7,262 nucleotides of DNA from IMG/VR virus record IMGVR_UViG_2734482562_000003, one strand, 5' to 3'. Positions within the stretch are counted from its first letter, which is position 1. Every line of letters begins with the position of its first letter. Source of the stretch: a virus (Duplodnaviria; Heunggongvirae; Uroviricota; Caudoviricetes). The notes under the pieces are model-generated. The model made no database searches. It was not told where the DNA came from and worked only from the letters and a program-made list of their open reading frames with translations. Shown piece by piece: positions 1 through 7,262 of this stretch. Position numbers and translations under genes: made by a program.

Positions 1-2
1 TT

Positions 3-380
3 ACCTACAAAGAGCAGCGCGACAAAAACGCAAGAGAACTGAAGCTGGCGAACGCAACCATTACTGACATGCAGCAGCGCCAGCGTGATGCTGATGCACT
101 CGATGCTAAATACACGAAGGAGTTAGCTGATGCGAAAGCTGAAAATGATGCTCTTCGGCGCAAGCTTGATAATGGTGGTCGGGTGCTCGTCAAAGGAAAA
201 TGCCCTGTGCCATCCTCAGCCGAAACCTCCAGCGCCTCCGGCATGGGCAATGATGCCACCGTCGAACTCTCTCCAGTTGCTGGACGAAACGTTCTCGGTA
301 TCCGGGACGGAATCATCAGCGACCAGACAGCATTGAGAATGCTTCAGGAGTACATCAGGATCCAATGCCTTGGGGGGTAG
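3..380 (+). CDS. Rz: Rz-like i-spanin (inner-membrane spanin subunit), 5' end cut by window edge
   Basis: Frame 3 is open from the window start to TAG at 378-380. The translation ([52 protein letters not shown]...) closely matches my recollection of phage lambda Rz (coiled-coil periplasmic region), and two Cys residues (KGKC and IQCLGG) sit where lambda Rz has its cysteines. The true start lies upstream of the window. Confidence 0.85.
130..336 (+). CDS. Rz1: Rz1-like o-spanin (outer-membrane lipoprotein), embedded in the +1 frame of Rz
   Basis: The ORF lies wholly inside Rz in a different frame. A strong RBS AAGGAG (117-122) sits 7 nt before the ATG. The N-terminus [21 protein letters not shown] is a lipoprotein signal peptide with lipobox-like VVGC, followed by a Pro-rich segment ([11 protein letters not shown]), as in lambda Rz1. 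Confidence 0.8.
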
Positions 381-468
381 CGGTAATTTTACTCATTATC
401 CTTCAAATCAGATTCTGTTGTCAGAGGAATGGGGGAAGCTGGATTCGCAAGAGCTTTTTATGGGCAGT

Positions 469-978
469 TTAGCTAAAAAAAGGCAACACGAAGCTAAAAC
501 TACCAACATAAAGTGCTGACCAGCTAGCAGCTGAAATCAGACTCACTGTATACACTTTCACTGGATGAAGTTGCAACATTCCTGCCACCAAAGGAGCAAT
601 ATAACGCAGCACGGCGATAAAGCGCGAAGTGAAAAGTATTGACACAGAGTTATTTTGCAACTGAAGGCGAACCCGTTCTATTGTATTGGAACGGCTTGAT
701 ATTATACATGCAAGTTGAGGGATATGCCCAATTATTATACCAAGATGGTAATTAACGATAGTACCGCACCATGCGCCACTCATGACCGTGATTCCAGCTT
801 CCCATGGTGAAAGAGTCGTCTTGCTGACTGTAATTACAGTGGCCATCATAATTGATGCTGGTGGCAATATCGCCGAAATGAGTAAAGTGGATTTTGTGAA
901 CGCTATTATAAAAAGAAGCCCCCATAGGCGATATGGATGAAGTACAAAATAGTTCATCAAAGCATTTATCCACTCCAT
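469..978 (-). CDS. YqaA/DedA-family polytopic inner-membrane protein (moron; function unknown)
   Basis: A 169-170 codon ORF on the minus strand with ATG at 978-976 (the ORF track starts one codon earlier at TTG 981-979) and TAA stop at 471-469. It is very hydrophobic with several predicted TM segments. The segments ILPPASIMMATVITVSKTTLSPWEAG and RFIAVLRYIAPLVAGM resemble the LLPGNSEVVLVAMLL...HPW and MPVVGDLLCLLAGW regions of E. coli YqaA as I recall it. An AAGGA-like RBS lies about 9 nt upstream on the minus strand. The region is visibly more AT-rich than the flanking phage genes. Confidence 0.65.
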   Translation of the reverse strand: MEWINALMNYFVLHPYRLWGLLFIIAFTKSTLLISAILPPASIMMATVITVSKTTLSPWEAGITVMSGAWCGTIVNYHLGIIIGHIPQLACIISSRSNTIERVRLQLQNNSVSILFTSRFIAVLRYIAPLVAGMLQLHPVKVYTVSLISAASWSALYVGSFSFVLPFFS

Positions 979-1162
979 CAATGTCTTTCCTTCTGTGAAT
1001 TTTTCTTTGCTATTTAACCGTGATACGACTTAATTTAGGCTTAAACACCTTACATTTACAAGGTACTCCTGTGGGGGGCCCTGCCACGGAGCGTCGCAGG
1101 AGTGAGTGATGAGGAAGAATTAAAGCAACCTATTGTGACAGGCAGCGATAACAGTAAATCAC

Positions 1163-1168
1163 AGGAAG
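1163..1168 (+). promoter_or_regulatory. Ribosome-binding site (AGGAAG) for the small terminase gene
   Basis: Purine-rich Shine-Dalgarno-like hexamer 7 nt upstream of the ATG at 1176. Confidence 0.5.
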
Positions 1169-1175
1169 CATAATC

Positions 1176-1940
1176 ATGGCAAAACCGGACTGGGAGGCCA
1201 TCGAATCGGCATACCGGGCCGGAGTCCTTAGCCTCCGTGATATAGGCGAGAAATACGGCGTTACAGAAGGGGCTATCAGGAAGAGGGCCAAAAAGCTTGG
1301 TTGGGCACGCAGTGGCGGTACGCAGGTTTGCAAAAATGGTACGCAAAAAAGGAAAGTGCGTACCAGCAGAAAGCCTGCCATTACTGGCCTTACACAAAAA
1401 AGTACGCAACTAAAAACAGAATCTACACCGGATACGAAACCGATACGCGGAATGCGTACCGATCCCCCGACTAACCCATTCCAACCCGGTAACCAGCAGG
1501 CATTAAAACACGGTGGTTATGCCCGTCGCCTTCTGCTCAAAGATGAGGTGATAGAGGACGCTAAAGCGTTGACGCTCGAGGACGAATTATTTCGCCTTCG
1601 TGCTAACAACCTTGTCGCTGCAGAGAATATTGGTCGGTGGTTGGTGTCGCTGGAAGATGCTAATGGGGACCAGGAAAGGAAGATGCTGATTGAAAATATC
1701 AGCGCCGCCGAGAAAGCAATGATGCGCAATACAGTTCGTATTGAGTCCATCGTTGGCACGCTTGCGACGGTAGGAAAAATATTTGCTGATACAGCCTACC
1801 GCAAGGCCGCCACTGATAAGGTGTCTCTGGAGGCTGATCGTCTTCGCCGTGATGCAGGTATTGATGATGGCAATGGAGAGCGTGACCTCAATGACTTCTA
1901 CTCTGACATCCAAACCGACGCTGAATCCGGCTTTACGTAG
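1176..1940 (+). CDS. terS: Terminase small subunit
   Basis: A 254-aa ORF directly upstream of, and overlapping, the large terminase. The N-terminus has a helix-turn-helix-like segment (LSLRDIGEKYGVTEGAIRKRAKKLGW), and the motif NPFQPGNQQALKHGGYA is typical of phage small terminases as I recall them. It follows a good RBS and ends with TAG at 1938-1940. Confidence 0.8.
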   Translation: MAKPDWEAIESAYRAGVLSLRDIGEKYGVTEGAIRKRAKKLGWARSGGTQVCKNGTQKRKVRTSRKPAITGLTQKSTQLKTESTPDTKPIRGMRTDPPTNPFQPGNQQALKHGGYARRLLLKDEVIEDAKALTLEDELFRLRANNLVAAENIGRWLVSLEDANGDQERKMLIENISAAEKAMMRNTVRIESIVGTLATVGKIFADTAYRKAATDKVSLEADRLRRDAGIDDGNGERDLNDFYSDIQTDAESGFT

Positions 1941-3294
1941 TTTCTGGACTATGCGGGCACGTAACAAAGTGCTTTATGGTGGTCGGTCATCGTCAAAATC
2001 ATGGGATGCCGCTGGCATTGCCATATTTCTGTCGAATAAATACACCCTGCGTTTTTGTTGTGCCCGTCAGATCCAGAATAAAATCGAAGAGTCGGTGTAT
2101 ACCCTGCTCAAAATTCAGATAGACAGGTTTGGTCTGCGGCACCGTTTCCGTATTCTGAACAACAAAATCATTAACCGGGTTACTGGCTCGGAATTTGTTT
2201 TTTATGGATTATGGCGCAACATCGAAGAAATTAAGTCACTGGAGGGGATCGATGTGTTGTGGCTGGAAGAAGCCCACGCACTGACGGAATACCAGTGGAA
2301 AATTCTGGAGCCAACGATCCGTAAAGAGGGTTCGGAATGCTGGTTCATATTCAACCCCGGACTTGTTACTGATTTCGTCTGGCGCAACTTCGTTGTTGAT
2401 CCGCCCGAAGGCACTCTCATCCGCAAAATTAACTATGACGAAAATCCGTTTCTGTCTGACACCATGCTTAAGGTTATCGACGCGGCGCGACGCCGTGATC
2501 CGGATGGTTTTAAACATGTGTATGAGGGCGTTCCGGAGTCTGATGATGATGCGGCAATCATCAAACTGTCTTGGATAGAAGCCGCAGTGGATGCGCACAA
2601 AACGTTAAATTTCGAACCCAGTGGAAGAAAGCGTATTGGCTTTGACGTGGCTGACAGTGGTACAGATAAGTGCGCTAACGTTTACCGTCACGGATCCGTT
2701 GTTTTCTGGGCCGACGAATGGAAGGCCAAAGAAGATGAATTACTGAAGAGCTGCCAGCGTACTTATCAGGCGGCGCTGGAGCGTGAAGCAGATATTGTTT
2801 ACGACTCTATCGGTGTTGGTGCGTCTGCCGGTGCTAAATTCTCTGAAATTAACGCTGACCGGAAGAGCGAGAACGCATACGCGCGACGTGTGAATTACCA
2901 GAGGTTTAACGCCGGTGCTGGTGTGCATGAGCCAGATGACGAGTACAACGGCATCCCCAACAAAGACTTTTTCGCAAATCTTAAGGCTCAGGCATGGTGG
3001 CTGGTGGCTGACCGTTTCAGAAATACGTTTAACGCCATTAACAACGGAGAACAGTATCCTGTGGATGAGCTGATCAGCATAGATTCTCGTTGTCCGTTGC
3101 TTGAAAAGCTGAAACTGGAACTGACAACACCTCATCGTGATTTCGACCGTAACGGACGTGTGATGGTCGAAAGTAAAAAAGACCTCGCAAAACGCGAGAT
3201 ACCGTCACCAAACGTTGCTGATGCATTCATTATGGCCTTCGCGCCAATCGATACATCGCTGGATATCTGGGAACAGCTGGGGAGACAGGCCTGA
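1891..3294 (+). CDS. terL: Terminase large subunit (ATPase plus nuclease)
   Basis: The long ORF is open from 1783, but the likely start is ATG 1891 (MTSTLTSKPTLNP...) with GGAGAG 10 nt upstream; alternative starts are 1864, 1873 and 1951. It contains a P-loop-like segment YGGRSSSKSW and a Walker-B-like IDVLWLEEAH. Overall it resembles, from memory, the Sf6-type large terminase (e.g. IKSLEGID, FVVDPP, and the C-terminal SPNVADAFIMA nuclease-region motif). Stop is TGA 3292-3294. Confidence 0.85.
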   Translation: MTSTLTSKPTLNPALRSFWTMRARNKVLYGGRSSSKSWDAAGIAIFLSNKYTLRFCCARQIQNKIEESVYTLLKIQIDRFGLRHRFRILNNKIINRVTGSEFVFYGLWRNIEEIKSLEGIDVLWLEEAHALTEYQWKILEPTIRKEGSECWFIFNPGLVTDFVWRNFVVDPPEGTLIRKINYDENPFLSDTMLKVIDAARRRDPDGFKHVYEGVPESDDDAAIIKLSWIEAAVDAHKTLNFEPSGRKRIGFDVADSGTDKCANVYRHGSVVFWADEWKAKEDELLKSCQRTYQAALEREADIVYDSIGVGASAGAKFSEINADRKSENAYARRVNYQRFNAGAGVHEPDDEYNGIPNKDFFANLKAQAWWLVADRFRNTFNAINNGEQYPVDELISIDSRCPLLEKLKLELTTPHRDFDRNGRVMVESKKDLAKREIPSPNVADAFIMAFAPIDTSLDIWEQLGRQA

Positions 3295-4760
3295 TGGCAC
3301 GAAACAAACAAGCCCTGCGGCGAACTGTGCAGGCCACAGCTGATGGTTATGAGAATTTTATTGCCCGCGTAGGGATGCAGACACCTAACCAGCACTCAGC
3401 ATCCACCTACCGGGCTAATTTCACCAGTCGTAACCGCATGCTGGTGGAATGGTCCTATCGTTCATCCTAGATCATCGGCGAAGCAGTCGATGCTATCCCG
3501 GATGATATGACCCGCAAAGGCATTCGCATCACTTCGGAAATTGATGCAAAAGATCGTGGCATTCTCGAATCACAACTGGATGAGTTGCAAATCTGGGATG
3601 CGCTGAATGACGTGCTGAAATGGTCGCGCCTCTACGGCGGCGCGGTGGGTTTCATCATGATTGAGGGGTAGGCACCAATGACCCCGCTGCGACCCGAAAC
3701 CATCGGTAAGGGCAAGTTTAAGGGGATTCTCCCGCTCGACCGCTGGATGGTCGACCCGGCACTGACCCGCCGCATTAAAGATATGGGGCCGGACCTGGGT
3801 AAACCTGAGTTTTACGATGTGGTGACCACAGCAACGGGAATTCCTGCCTGGCGCATTCATCACAGTCGCCTGATTCGCTTTGATGGCGTCACGTTGCCAT
3901 TTCAGCAGAAGATGACCGAGAACGAATGGGGAATGTCGGTTGTAGAGCGTATCTGGGATCGTCTTACCGCGTTCGACAGCGCTACTGTCGGCGCGGCGCA
4001 GCTGGTCTACAAGGCGCATTTGCGTACCTACAGCGTGGAGAAGCTACGCGAGCTTATCGCACTTGGTGGTCCTGCGTATGAAGCGTTGCTGAAGAATATC
4101 GACCTGATTCGACAGTTCCAGAGTAATGAAGGCATGACGCTCATGGACTCGCGGGATAAGTTTGAAACCCATCAGTACAGCTTCAGTGGTCTGGATGACA
4201 TCCTTTCGCAGTTTGTAGAACAGATTAGTGGCGCTGTTGGTATCCCACTGGTGCGGTTGTTCGGACAGTCCCCGAAAGGATTTTCTACCGGTGATGCAGA
4301 CCTTGCCAACTATTACGATCGCATCAGTTCGTTGCAGGAGAGGCGTTTACGTCTTCCGGTGCGGCGGATACTGGACATCATGCATCGTTCGGAACTTGGC
4401 AAGCCGCTGCCGGACGATTTCACGTTTGAGTTTAACCCGCTCTGGCAAATGTCTGATGTCGATCGCTCAACGGTGGCGTTAAACACCACCAACGCAATCA
4501 GTACGGCGCTGGGTGATGGTCTGATGACACTGAAAGCCGCTATGACTGATTTGCGAGAAAATTCTGACGTAACCGGCATCGGGGCATCCATTACCGACGA
4601 GGACATCGAGAATGCCGAAGATGAAGCGCCGCCCGGCATCGGCGAACCTGATGACGAACCGCAGGAGCCGTCAGGCGGAAATCCGGTATCGAACCAGCCT
4701 ACGCAGGATAGCGAGGGCGGTCGGAGACATCGTAAATGGTCGCTACGATGGTTCAAATGA
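3294..4760 (+). pseudogene. Portal protein gene interrupted by two in-frame amber (TAG) codons
   Basis: ATG at 3294-3296 overlaps the terL stop (TGATG), a classic translational-coupling junction. The same frame runs 488 codons to TGA 4758-4760, a typical portal size, at the portal position between terL and the head-morphogenesis gene. It is broken only by TAG at 3468-3470 (codon 59) and TAG at 3669-3671 (codon 126). The segments between the stops are protein-like, and the largest uninterrupted ORF (3678-4760, 360 aa) has its own GAGGGG RBS-like sequence. The portal assignment rests on size and synteny, not a recognised motif. Confidence 0.6.
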
Positions 4761-5430
4761 CAGTATCACGGAAATTATTGCGGCGCTGGAGCGTTACAGT
4801 GAAATCATCACCCCCTGGGCGACAAAGGTCGCGGAAAACTTTACTGCGGACCTAACCCGGCAGAACGAGAAAGTTTGGCGGCAACACAGCAAGAACATCA
4901 GTCGCGAGCTCCGCAATCTTGTGGAAAGCGCTCCTGTGGGCCAGGTGATGCAATCCATCATCGCCGAACAGGTCAAGTACATCAAATCTCTGCCTCTCGA
5001 GGCCGCAGACAGGGTGTACGACATCCAGAACAAAGCGATAGAGGCTGTTGTCACCGGTGGTCGGGCGGAGCAGTTTGCTAAAGAGATTGCATCTACCGGC
5101 GATGTTGCTAAGTCTAGGGCCGATCTGNNNNNNNNNNNNNNNNNNNNNNNNNNNNNNNNNNNNNNNNNNNNNNNNNNNNNNNNNNNNNNNNNNNNNNNNN
5201 NNNNNNNNNNNNNNNNNNNNNNNNNNNNNNNNNNNNNNNNNNNNNNNNNNNNNNNNNNNNNNNNNNNNNNNNNNNNNNNNNNNNNNNNNNNNNNNNNNNN
5301 NNNNNNNNNNNNNNNNNNNNNNNNNNNNNNNNNNNNNNNNNNNNNNNNNNNNNNNNNNNNNNNNNNNNNNNNNNNNNNNNNNNNNNNNNNNNNNNNNNNN
5401 NNNNNNNNNNNNATGAAAAGGGCAGCATAA
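4612..5430 (+). CDS. Putative head morphogenesis / minor head protein, interrupted by an assembly gap
   Basis: ORF with a GAGGA RBS 8 nt before ATG 4612. It overlaps the 3' end of the portal frame by 149 nt in another frame and sits between the portal and the scaffold-like gene. The central part is unknown (N run 5128-5412), so length and frame continuity across the gap cannot be verified. The function call is based mainly on synteny. Confidence 0.4.
   Translation: MPKMKRRPASANLMTNRRSRQAEIRYRTSLRRIARAVGDIVNGRYDGSNDSITEIIAALERYSEIITPWATKVAENFTADLTRQNEKVWRQHSKNISRELRNLVESAPVGQVMQSIIAEQVKYIKSLPLEAADRVYDIQNKAIEAVVTGGRAEQFAKEIASTGDVAKSRADLXXXXXXXXXXXXXXXXXXXXXXXXXXXXXXXXXXXXXXXXXXXXXXXXXXXXXXXXXXXXXXXXXXXXXXXXXXXXXXXXXXXXXXXXXXXXXXXMKRAA
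5128..5412. other. Run of 285 N (assembly gap or masked sequence)
   Basis: Directly visible in the sequence. True length and content are unknown. Confidence 0.99.
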
Positions 5431-5433
5431 CCC

Positions 5434-6654
5434 ATGAAATACTTTTTTGAGACCAGGCTCGGGGAAACCCGATACCGCCTGGCTGACGGCTCGTTGCTGT
5501 GCAAAGACGTGCCGATAGGACGAACAGGTAAGCAGCTCTATGGTGCTGATGACCTGCCAAAACTGAAACCCGATAAGTTCGGTGAAATAGTCGTCACGCG
5601 TTCTCCTGAGCAGGTATTCCATCCGGCCACGCTTGCCTCATTCGAAGGGATGAGCATCACGATCCTGCATCCTGAAGATGAAAACGGGAATGTGCGGCTG
5701 GTAAATCCCGAGAACTGGAAAGAGCTTGCTGTCGGGCACCTCCAGAATGTCCGGCGCGGGACGGGTGAGCAGTCTGATTTGATGCTGGCTGACCTTATCG
5801 TCAAAGACGAAAGCGCCATTCAGCTTATCGAAGATGGCCTGCGCGAAGTGTCGTGCGGCTATGACGCGGAGTACGAGCAGACCGAGCCAGGTAAAGCCGA
5901 GCAGGTCGATATTACCGGAAACCATGTGGCTCTTGTCCCTAAAGGCAGAGCCGGAAATCGTTGTGCAATTGGAGACAGAGACACAATGGCAAATCAAAAG
6001 AAAAACTGGTGGAACCGCATGCGTGCGGCCATCAAGACAGGAGATGCCGACACCATGAACGAACTGGTGGAGTCGGCTCCCGCATCGGTTACAGGAGATG
6101 AGGGGGATTTGCCGCAGGGCGTTAATCTCAACATCAACCTGTCCCCGCAGCAACCACTACCGGACAAAGCACCAGAGATGGGCGGAGATCCAACCGGCGA
6201 CAGTGATGATGACCTCAAAACATTACTGAAAGTCCTGCTGGCTAAGCTGGAAAGAAATGCCACGGGCGATAACGATAATAAGCCTGACGATAATCCGACC
6301 GGTGACGGCGAGGACGATGAAGAGGAAACCACGATTACTGGTGACTCAGCCTGGCGTGCCGAAGTTATCGTTCCGGGTATCGATCTGAGCCGTAAGATGA
6401 AACCGACCGCGTTCAAACGCGAGGTTCTGGCTTCTGCTGACAAAACGCTGGTTCGCCAGATAGTCGGTGATGCGGATATCCGCAAATTACCGAAACAATC
6501 GGTCGACATGGCGTTTAATGCCGTGTCTGAGGTTGCCAAAGGGCGAAACACCCGCGCCACCACCGGCGATGCACAGCGCCTAAACATGGGCATGACCAGT
6601 ATCGCTTCCCTGAACAAACAAAACGCTGAATTCTGGGCAAACCGTAAAGGGTAA
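5434..6654 (+). CDS. Putative capsid scaffolding / head maturation protein (DUF2213-like)
   Basis: A 406-aa ORF. The N-terminal region (RLADGSLLCKDVPIGRTGKQLY ... NHVALVPKGRAG) resembles what I recall of the DUF2213 phage head-protein family. It has a long acidic low-complexity central region with repeated TGD motifs, which is scaffold-like. It sits upstream of a small structural gene and the expected capsid gene. Confidence 0.55.
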   Translation: MKYFFETRLGETRYRLADGSLLCKDVPIGRTGKQLYGADDLPKLKPDKFGEIVVTRSPEQVFHPATLASFEGMSITILHPEDENGNVRLVNPENWKELAVGHLQNVRRGTGEQSDLMLADLIVKDESAIQLIEDGLREVSCGYDAEYEQTEPGKAEQVDITGNHVALVPKGRAGNRCAIGDRDTMANQKKNWWNRMRAAIKTGDADTMNELVESAPASVTGDEGDLPQGVNLNINLSPQQPLPDKAPEMGGDPTGDSDDDLKTLLKVLLAKLERNATGDNDNKPDDNPTGDGEDDEEETTITGDSAWRAEVIVPGIDLSRKMKPTAFKREVLASADKTLVRQIVGDADIRKLPKQSVDMAFNAVSEVAKGRNTRATTGDAQRLNMGMTSIASLNKQNAEFWANRKG

Positions 6655-6657
6655 AAA

Positions 6658-7164
6658 ATGAATAATGTATTTCTGTACCGGATGCCTGTTGGCATTGCCG
6701 GGGCTGTCTCTCGCCCGCAGGACTTAACCGTCGAACCGGTGGTCCTTAAATCCGATAACGCCTTCGCTGCCTATGGCCTGGCTGGTAAATACGATGATGA
6801 CGGTTTTTTCGTGCCGCTGGCAGATGGTGATACCGCAGACAAGGTGAAGGGGATCTACGTGCGCCCTTATCCGACCACGTCGCAGCCGGACATGGTTCGC
6901 CAGGTGGGAACAGGCAAGAACTTCCCGGGCGACGCCATGAAGCGTGGCTACGTGACCGTTAATCTCGGTTCTGATTTTGATGCCAGCACTATCAAAAAAG
7001 GCGATCCGGTATACGTTGTCGTCTCCACTGATGAATCCATCAAAGTGCCGCTGGGTGGATTCATGTCCACGTCAGTCAGTGGCAAAAACGTGGTGCTGAC
7101 CAACGCTGAATTCACAGGTGCCGGTGATGCTGACGGCAATGCAGAAATTTCCTGGAAGATTTAA
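6658..7164 (+). CDS. Putative head structural protein (decoration/cement-like), 168 aa
   Basis: ATG 6658 follows the upstream stop by 3 nt with an AAGGG RBS. The protein is Gly/Val-rich and beta-like, in the position occupied by small cement or decoration proteins in DUF2213-type head modules. The function is inferred from synteny only. Confidence 0.45.
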   Translation: MNNVFLYRMPVGIAGAVSRPQDLTVEPVVLKSDNAFAAYGLAGKYDDDGFFVPLADGDTADKVKGIYVRPYPTTSQPDMVRQVGTGKNFPGDAMKRGYVTVNLGSDFDASTIKKGDPVYVVVSTDESIKVPLGGFMSTSVSGKNVVLTNAEFTGAGDADGNAEISWKI

Positions 7165-7175
7165 GGAACAGACGA

Positions 7176-7179
7176 ATGA
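7176..7179 (+). pseudogene. Remnant 5' end (ATG plus 1 nt) of the next head gene, possibly major capsid, truncated by IS1
   Basis: An AAGGA RBS (7163-7167, overlapping the upstream stop) lies 8 nt before ATG 7176-7178. The IS1 terminal inverted repeat begins at 7180, so any gene starting here is disrupted after 4 nt. Confidence 0.35.
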
Positions 7180-7202
7180 GGTGATGCTGCCAACTTACTG
7201 AT
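7180..7202 (+). repeat. IS1 left terminal inverted repeat (IRL)
   Basis: GGTGATGCTGCCAACTTACTGAT, the canonical roughly 23-bp IS1 end. Confidence 0.85.
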
Positions 7203-7234
7203 TTAGTGTATGATGGTGTTTTTGAGGTGCTCCA

Positions 7235-7262
7235 GTGGCTTCTGTTTCTATCAGCTGTCCCT
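7235..7262 (+). CDS. insA: insA (IS1 transposition regulator / N-terminal transposase part), 5' fragment
   Basis: GTG start followed by codons for ASVSISCP, matching the InsA N-terminus MASVSISCPSC... The gene runs off the window end. Confidence 0.8.

Follow-up and report, generated by a model that had tools for sequence, protein, structure and literature searches.

A portal pseudogene with two amber codons in a decaying prophage of Shigella sonnei

The window, i.e. the whole stretch of 7,262 nt that was analysed, opens on its plus strand with the 3' part of an Rz-type spanin gene (3..380), followed by an intact terminase small subunit gene (terS, 1176..1940; phrog_370, 319 bits), the extent of which equals that of the annotated CDS of relatives, and by an intact gene of PBSX/Terminase_3 type encoding a terminase large subunit of 467 residues (terL, 1891..3294; PF04466, 131 bits), which is annotated as such in relatives. 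Both the Rz and terS genes end in TAG. Beyond the frame considered below lies a Mu-F-like head morphogenesis gene (4651..5430; PF04233, matched with the copy in S. sonnei 53G, which is identical), the 3' part of which is under a run of 285 N at 5128-5412 in this draft assembly; in other assemblies the run corresponds to 249 bp, identical to the E. coli relative. It is followed by an intact gene for a DUF2213 protein of 406 residues (5434..6654; PF09979, 145 bits), which also matches phrog_1961, phrog_12864 and phrog_530, the last two labelled head maturation protease, and is likely a head maturation protease/scaffold, and by an intact gene for a capsid cement/minor capsid protein like E217 gp24 and XM1 gp53 (6658..7164; PF23982, 105 bits; PF22758, 77 bits). 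None of the terS, terL, Mu-F, DUF2213 and cement genes contains an in-frame TAG.

Between terL and the Mu-F-like gene, translation of 3294-4760 (plus strand) gives a single frame of 488 codons plus TGA, the ATG of which (3294-3296) overlaps the terL stop (TGA, 3292-3294). The frame has two internal stops, both TAG, at 3468-3470 and 3669-3671, exactly as the original prediction had described. The accompanying argument that a random sequence of this length would contain more stops also holds, in that 2000 mononucleotide shuffles of 3294-4760 had on average 20.9 in-frame stops, with a minimum of 8 and no case of two or fewer; in the remaining five frames of this segment there are 9-35 stops.

The two ambers divide the frame into three open reading frames. 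The first is an N-terminal stub of 58 residues (3294..3470), which gene callers list by itself in several assemblies of S. sonnei and which alone has no match in a Pfam search. The second, between the ambers (3507..3671), runs from Met72 to Gly125; its 54 residues match positions 24-76 of the PF06381 profile (40 bits) and are the exact counterpart of the 54-residue family phrog_28295. The third is a residual frame of 360 residues from the native Met129 (3678..4760), matching PF06381 positions 84-355 (274 bits), such that the 54- and 360-residue fragments cover consecutive parts of one model. The 360-residue frame, ahead of the ATG of which lies GAGGGG (3663-3668), is possibly a restart product that would lack the N-terminal 128 residues; an index of public assemblies has this exact protein in 2576 blocks.

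The intact relative of this frame matches PF06381 (Phage_portal_3/DUF1073) with 355 bits (cut-off 33.8), NCBIfam TIGR01555 (HI1409 family) with 255 bits (cut-off 196) and the portal family phrog_146 with 583 bits. Homology searches with it also found the structurally characterized portal of Pam3 (PDB 8hds), with E=2e-37 over residues 15-413, and E217 gp19 (PDB 8fvh), with E=1e-14. The PF06381 model begins aligning at residue 55 and the Pam3 portal at residue 15. The gene order, i.e. terS, terL, portal, Mu-F, DUF2213 and cement protein, places the frame directly after terL. Together with the fragment matches, these results identify 3294-4760, on sequence and profile evidence, as what was a genuine phage portal gene and is now a pseudogene. 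A label of the anti-CBASS Acb1 family, given by PGAP to one orthologue in a single E. coli record (H44), was considered and ruled out; TIGR01555 is the only NCBIfam match, and the structural and PHROG evidence is for a portal.

The closest intact counterpart is WP_000113499.1 ('DUF1073 domain-containing protein'), a 488-residue portal encoded in E. coli prophages, among them those of FDAARGOS_944, FDAARGOS_943 and VL40, whose gene has the same place after terL, the same ATG start and the same length of 488 codons as the frame in the window. The two DNA sequences are 99.8% identical, differing at 3 positions in 1467 nt, where the intact gene has TGG, CAG and GCA and the window has TAG, TAG and GTA. 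In the FDAARGOS_944 and VL40 prophages the intact portal gene still stands among capsid and tail genes. Over 5127 nt the window aligns colinearly with intact homologues, with no gaps or indels, in accord with the proposed lack of frameshifts and deletions. The homologues align across both TAG positions, carrying there the Trp and Gln that had been guessed, and they start at the equivalent of the ATG at 3294, not at that of 3678, as separate small genes upstream would have required.

Typing of further copies, by a degenerate pattern scan of IMG/VR together with fetched loci, gave 47 with TGG/CAG and 13 with TAG/TAG, the former including three complete E. coli genomes, one S. flexneri genome and 42 IMG/VR contigs; no copy with a single amber was found among the 60. 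The collection of species-representative genomes yielded wild-type portal copies only, one from S. flexneri SFBU1023 and one from E. coli ECMA0423. The invariance of the intact copies (47/47 at each site) indicates that the ancestral codons are TGG (Trp59) and CAG (Gln126), and that each TAG derives from its intact codon by a single G:C>A:T transition, namely G>A at 3469 and C>T at 3669. A third S. sonnei-specific portal change, C>T at 4216, converts the Ala308 codon GCA to the valine codon GTA and was seen only in copies having both ambers. Over 135-7179, the only differences between the window and the nearest intact copy (locus L035) are at 601, 697, 3469, 3669, 4216 and 6233. The suggestion that an essential morphogenesis gene had been inactivated by nonsense mutation is thus borne out by near-identical intact orthologues with sense codons at both sites.

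The double-amber allele occurs identically in 13 further assemblies (loci L006-L018), several being finished chromosomes produced by different laboratories from different S. sonnei lineages. An error of sequencing or assembly, whereby the TAGs would be absent from the real DNA, might be entertained for a draft with a 285-N gap; however, with both TAGs in those 13 assemblies and the 360-residue frame in the 2576 assembly blocks, this reading, which the original prediction had already thought less likely, is refuted and its residual probability is negligible. Since S. sonnei 53G (HE616528, lineage II) and 75/02 (CP019689, lineage IIIc) carry one allele, the ambers evidently appeared on the branch that led to S. 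sonnei, before lineages II and III split, which puts a date to what had been called a recent inactivation. Only four S. sonnei-specific substitutions are present in about 6.9 kb, and the otherwise pristine state of the frame is explained by the very little time that has elapsed.

That both stops are amber, and that they lie in a late structural gene, invites consideration of two readings in which a portal would still be made. In TAG-recoded phages the late genes carry in-frame TAGs. Recoding or programmed read-through of this kind is nevertheless about as improbable here as an assembly error, because only two TAGs occur, both in one gene, because closely related functional phages have sense codons at these positions, and because the Rz and terS genes terminate at TAG, at the very positions where their annotated counterparts in relatives stop; the last observation also excludes TAG reassignment, in line with the earlier view that it is unlikely. 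An Rfam search for read-through elements gave no match, and the RNA 3' of each TAG showed no more stable folding than shuffled controls did (z = -1.6 and +0.3). A search of the window and of the 21 kb around the 53G copy found no tRNA whose anticodon is CUA; more generally, the window and loci L008, L009 and L010 contain no tRNA genes, and L013 contains only a tRNA-Met(cat). The tRNA clusters of related prophages, which lie upstream of the lysis genes, comprise only Met/Ile, Arg, Thr and Gly/Val species, with no CUA anticodon. The locus does not, therefore, have the features by which recoded phages are recognized.

The second such reading is that of a phage dependent on hosts with an amber suppressor tRNA, in which the portal would be produced by suppression; a Gln-inserting (supE-type) suppressor would indeed restore the wild-type residue at codon 126. 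The termination of neighbouring genes at TAG and the tRNA results just described are against it, and so is the state of the prophage. Homology to intact relatives ends at 7179 (position 9944 of locus L001, where the relatives' DUF2184 CDS begins at 9941), leaving ATGA (7176..7179, plus strand) as the sole remaining bases of the major capsid gene. In place of the capsid and tail genes, the window continues with the left end of IS1 (7180..7262, plus strand), identified by IS1 family matches. Loci L008 and L013 have an IS1 of 768 bp flanked by GACGAATGA and AACAGGGGG, which do not constitute a target-site duplication, and beyond the element lie a truncated invertase-like ORF and then chromosomal pgl. 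The S. sonnei element has thus lost the gene for the major capsid protein together with every tail gene, and in complete S. sonnei genomes an IS3-family element interrupts the holin gene. Because the IS1-associated deletion has removed the capsid and tail genes and the holin is interrupted by an IS, the prophage is judged non-viable regardless of the portal stops, in keeping with the earlier description of it as decaying. A portal restored by suppression could not give a phage without major capsid and tail genes, so suppressor dependence, previously ranked as a less likely alternative, is now very improbable, if marginally less so than recoding.

The end of the window (7180-7262) was also considered as p15A/pACYC184 vector, which would have made the sequence an engineered construct with designed ambers; searches against plasmids and E. 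coli identify it as the IS1 left end. The resemblance is accounted for by the IS1 end that pACYC184 has from Tn9.

A further possibility is that the ambers were selected, i.e. that loss of the portal helped the host, for instance if the portal of a half-dead prophage were toxic or triggered a portal-sensing immune system, with the second stop being selected since translation had restarted past the first. In favour of this are the in-frame ATGs after both stops (3507 and 3678), the second of which is preceded by GAGGGG, the intactness of the terS, terL, Mu-F, DUF2213 and cement genes, and the distribution of substitutions. The portal gene, with 22.6% of the G+C sites, has taken three of the four S. 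sonnei-specific changes (binomial P about 0.04), and two of the four are nonsense, when stop-creating changes make up 4.9% of the G:C>A:T changes available here (P about 0.014), although both values rest on four events and were computed post hoc on a feature picked for looking unusual, so that they carry little weight. The clustering in the portal is slightly odd for pure drift. Against selection, inactivation of the portal leaves lysis running and brings no evident benefit, the 21-kb neighbourhood showed no defence gene, there is no single-amber intermediate among the 60 typed copies by which the events could be ordered, and the other genes would be expected to be intact anyway on so short a branch. 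We therefore regard selection for loss, including the toxicity and immunity variants, as improbable. The narrower proposal that the ambers were selected in the S. sonnei ancestor with the second removing a restart product, or that the truncated 360-residue protein has been retained in a new function, is slightly less probable again.

We are thus confident that the locus is the portal pseudogene of a decaying, lambdoid-type prophage with a Pam3/E217-like head module in S. sonnei, and that its ambers are ordinary, probably neutral decay. On this account two independent point mutations, TGG>TAG at Trp59 and CAG>TAG at Gln126, would have accumulated in the element; translation would end after 58 residues, no full-length portal would be made, and the mutations would have been neutral rather than selected.

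No specific description of this particular portal pseudogene emerged from a search of the literature, and the double-amber portal is an ordinary broken gene. The locus is a fixed pseudogene of an S. sonnei prophage remnant, not a case of recoding, a suppressor-dependent phage or an assembly error, and the three ORFs reported by gene callers (58, 54 and 360 residues) should be annotated as one pseudogene. The 54-residue family phrog_28295 is a small example of how broken genes may pollute protein-family databases. As the two lineages of S. sonnei that were checked have both ambers, and none of the 47 other copies typed has either, they could serve as an S. sonnei marker. Beyond such housekeeping of annotation, the importance of the finding is small.

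The Pam3 (8hds) and E217 (gp19, 8fvh) Pseudomonas phage portals are homologous to the intact relative over most of its length, and Pam3 has W and Q at the positions aligned with Trp59 and Gln126; the cement protein encoded nearby is likewise of the E217 gp24/Pam3 gp6 type. Both portals are distant in sequence and, unlike the frame in the window, come from functional virions and are without premature stops. The ambers resemble those of laboratory mutants of phage head genes, in that each results from one transition (TGG>TAG or CAG>TAG) within a gene essential to morphogenesis; in contrast to such mutants, the S. sonnei allele comes from clinical isolates of different lineages rather than from mutagenized phage, and, with its capsid and tail genes gone, the element is beyond rescue by a suppressor. 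Decay of Shigella genomes by pseudogenes and IS elements is general and well described, and the prophage follows this pattern, with point-mutation pseudogenes and insertions and deletions involving IS1/IS2/IS3-family elements affecting one element; related copies in S. flexneri SFBU1023, L035 and FDAARGOS_943 have interruptions of their own in terL. There is no difference in kind from that process, the one particularity here being that a very short branch has brought two nonsense changes to a single gene.

The frame that opens with the ATG at 3294 and closes with the TGA at 4758-4760 reads as 488 sense positions with two internal stop codons and no more, TAG at 3468-3470 (codon 59) and TAG at 3669-3671 (codon 126), just as the original prediction described. 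Its ATG overlaps the stop codon (TGA, 3292-3294) of the preceding gene. Shuffles of the same bases carry a mean of 20.9 in-frame stops (minimum 8) against the two in the portal frame, and the remaining five frames of this stretch hold 9-35 stops each; 3294-4760 is clearly the coding frame.

The nearest intact copies lie in the Escherichia coli chromosomes FDAARGOS_944, FDAARGOS_943 and VL40 (99.8% identity over 1601 nt), with no closer copy among the 5426 complete E. coli genomes searched. In these three, the exact equivalent of 3294-4760 is a 488-aa CDS (WP_000113499.1, 'DUF1073 domain-containing protein') directly downstream of a PBSX-family large terminase gene. Its matches to Pfam PF06381 (Phage_portal_3; 355 bits), PHROG 146 ('portal protein'; 583 bits) and NCBIfam TIGR01555 (255 bits), and to the solved portals of the Pseudomonas phages Pam3 (8hds; residues 15-413, E=2e-37) and E217 (8fvh; E=1e-14), place the gene in the PF06381 portal family. 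The fragments in the window fall consecutively on PF06381, i.e. residues 72-125 on profile positions 24-76 and the 360-aa ORF on positions 84-355. The possibility that homologues start at the equivalent of 3678 is not borne out, since both the fragments and the intact homologues match one portal model upstream of this point too, and the intact CDS spans the equivalent of 3294-4760. In one E. coli record, H44 (NZ_CP148474.1), the orthologue is annotated as 'anti-CBASS protein Acb1 family protein' where every other record has DUF1073; because the profile and structure-sequence evidence backs a portal only, an Acb1 identity was rejected and the label looks like an annotation artefact.

Profile and PHROG searches identified the neighbouring genes as those for the small terminase (terS, 1176-1940), the large terminase (terL, 1891-3294), a Mu-F-like head morphogenesis protein partly hidden by Ns (4651-5430), a DUF2213 protein, probably a protease/scaffold (5434-6654), and a cement protein of the E217 gp24 / XM1 gp53 type (6658-7164). 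With starts taken from the PGAP annotation of relatives, terL would begin 50 nt before the terS stop (1891-1940) and the Mu-F-like gene 110 nt before the portal stop (4651-4760). The N-run at 5128-5412 comprises 285 bases, whereas 13 otherwise identical assemblies have 249 bp of real sequence there, which matches the E. coli relative exactly and codes for the C-terminal portion of the Mu-F-like protein; given this size difference and ordinary content, the run is a scaffold gap of the wrong size or a mask, with nothing unusual beneath it in the other copies.

Over 1-5127 and 5413-7179 the window aligns without gaps to the three E. coli loci, all of which have G at 3469 (window A; TGG, Trp59) and C at 3669 (window T; CAG, Gln126), so that each stop is due to a single-base substitution. 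The same Trp and Gln, the residues that the original prediction had guessed, occur in one S. flexneri genome, another E. coli genome and 42 IMG/VR contigs (gathered with a degenerate pattern allowing all four codon combinations), and are the Pam3 portal residues aligned to the two amber positions. Among 60 typed copies, 47 are TGG/CAG and 13 TAG/TAG, with no single-amber intermediate.

The double amber is a genuine Shigella sonnei allele. Four IMG/VR contigs with both TAGs match the window at 100% identity over the portal, and an index of public assemblies lists the exact 360-aa product of 3678-4757 in 2576 blocks. Ten fetched chromosomes all have TAG at codon 59, and nine have it at codon 126, the tenth (L019) having small indels (5 gap openings relative to the window) that make codon 126 unreadable in frame. 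The ten include HE616528.1 and CP019689, assigned by a published comparison (PMC5447701) to S. sonnei 53G (lineage II) and 75/02 (lineage IIIc); as both share the ambers, the mutations are older than the split of lineages II and IIIc, and sequencing error, already ranked as less likely in the original prediction, is excluded by the recurrence of the allele in independent chromosomes of different lineages. Public S. sonnei assemblies already contain the locus, called there as separate ORFs of 58, 54 and 360 aa. The 54-aa ORF between the ambers (3507-3671; residues 72-125) corresponds exactly to phrog_28295, a 54-position family of 'unknown function' (137.6 bits), and phrog_12751 (283 positions) matches residues 203-488 only; broken portal gene fragments appear to have turned into database families of their own.

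The alternatives considered were recoding, programmed read-through and a suppressor carried by the phage. Rz (TAG 378-380) and terS (TAG 1938-1940) stop exactly where the annotated genes of relatives stop, which shows TAG to be a normal terminator here and agrees with the earlier view that reassignment is unlikely. No tRNA genes were found within the window or its IMG/VR copies; the 21 kb around the 53G copy hold tRNA-Met(cat) only, and the tRNA clusters of related prophages are Met/Ile, Arg, Thr and Gly/Val. The window has no Rfam family match, and the RNA 3' of each TAG is no more stably folded than shuffled controls. Given normal TAG use and these negative results, all three mechanisms are unsupported.

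Compared over 135-7179, the closest intact portal copy (L035) and the window differ only at 601, 697, 3469, 3669, 4216 and 6233. The C>T change at 6233, which gives Ala267Val in the DUF2213 protein, is found in the window's strain alone, with C in 13/13 other S. sonnei copies, and 601 is probably a change of L035 and the related copy L060, since it groups the two. Position 88 (Ala>Asp in Rz), which L035 does not cover, differs from the three E. coli relatives. Four substitutions are S. sonnei-specific, all G:C>A:T transitions: 697 (synonymous), W59-to-stop, Q126-to-stop and A308V. The first, the only one outside the portal gene, lies in a gene for a DedA-family/VTT-domain membrane protein (469-981, minus strand; 170 aa, WP_011069285.1), which lies moron-like, in reverse orientation, between the lysis cassette and terS and is kept in all relatives examined. 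That silencing of the portal was selected might be argued from the portal gene's share of these changes (3/4, against 22.6% of G+C sites; P about 0.04) and from the nonsense fraction (2/4, against 4.9% of such transitions in these genes; P about 0.014), although both values concern four events and were computed post hoc on a feature chosen for looking unusual. We consider selection improbable and treat this mildly unusual clustering as chance. An N-terminally truncated 360-aa product could arise by restart at 3678, where an in-frame ATG follows GAGGGG.

The window stays homologous to intact relatives up to 7179 and retains just four bases, ATGA, of the major capsid gene (DUF2184); from 7180 onward the sequence is the left end of an IS1 (768 bp in complete S. 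sonnei genomes; corresponding region 13458-14300 in the S. sonnei locus L013). The bases flanking this IS1, GACGAATGA to its left and AACAGGGGG to its right, do not form a target-site duplication. Beyond it, the complete genomes have a 43-codon ORF stub with a product starting MLIGYVRVSTNDQ, presumably resembling the N terminus of Pin/Gin-type DNA invertases, and then the chromosomal genes pgl, ybhD and ybhJ. From this arrangement it follows that an IS1-associated deletion removed the capsid gene together with the entire tail region, which in relatives continues for >3.6 kb past this point and contains a gene of the DUF3383 tail-sheath family. Upstream, in the same genomes, the holin gene is overlapped by an IS3-family transposase. 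The prophage would be dead independently of the portal stops, and host suppression could not rescue it because the capsid and tail genes are missing. The IMG/VR contig L008 continues differently beyond this IS1, owing either to a true rearrangement or to a short-read misjoin at the repeat. In another double-amber contig, L009, the region upstream of the lysozyme gene (7800-9300) is unlike complete S. sonnei chromosomes and has no IS; it holds a 90-aa ORF at the expected holin place and a 373-aa ORF, DNA methyltransferase-like by eye, and could reflect mosaicism or a second related prophage copy.

In relatives from other strains terL is independently interrupted, by IS2 at window ~2339-2344 in E. 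coli FDAARGOS_943 (L003 3809-5140) and by a 1331-bp insertion in L035 (5151-6481) with a 5-bp duplication at window 2554-2558; in the related copies L004, L057 and L060 the break falls there too. This prophage type has been disabled repeatedly, by different routes, in different hosts.

The sense codons in homologues, the IS lesions and the capsid/tail deletion together uphold the original reading of nonsense inactivation in a decaying prophage. Our literature search found no paper on this particular portal pseudogene. Prophage decay in Shigella by IS elements and point mutation has long been described; the lesion is of the classical amber type, its setting is such decay, and the finding is real and ordinary, with nothing at the locus departing from that pattern.
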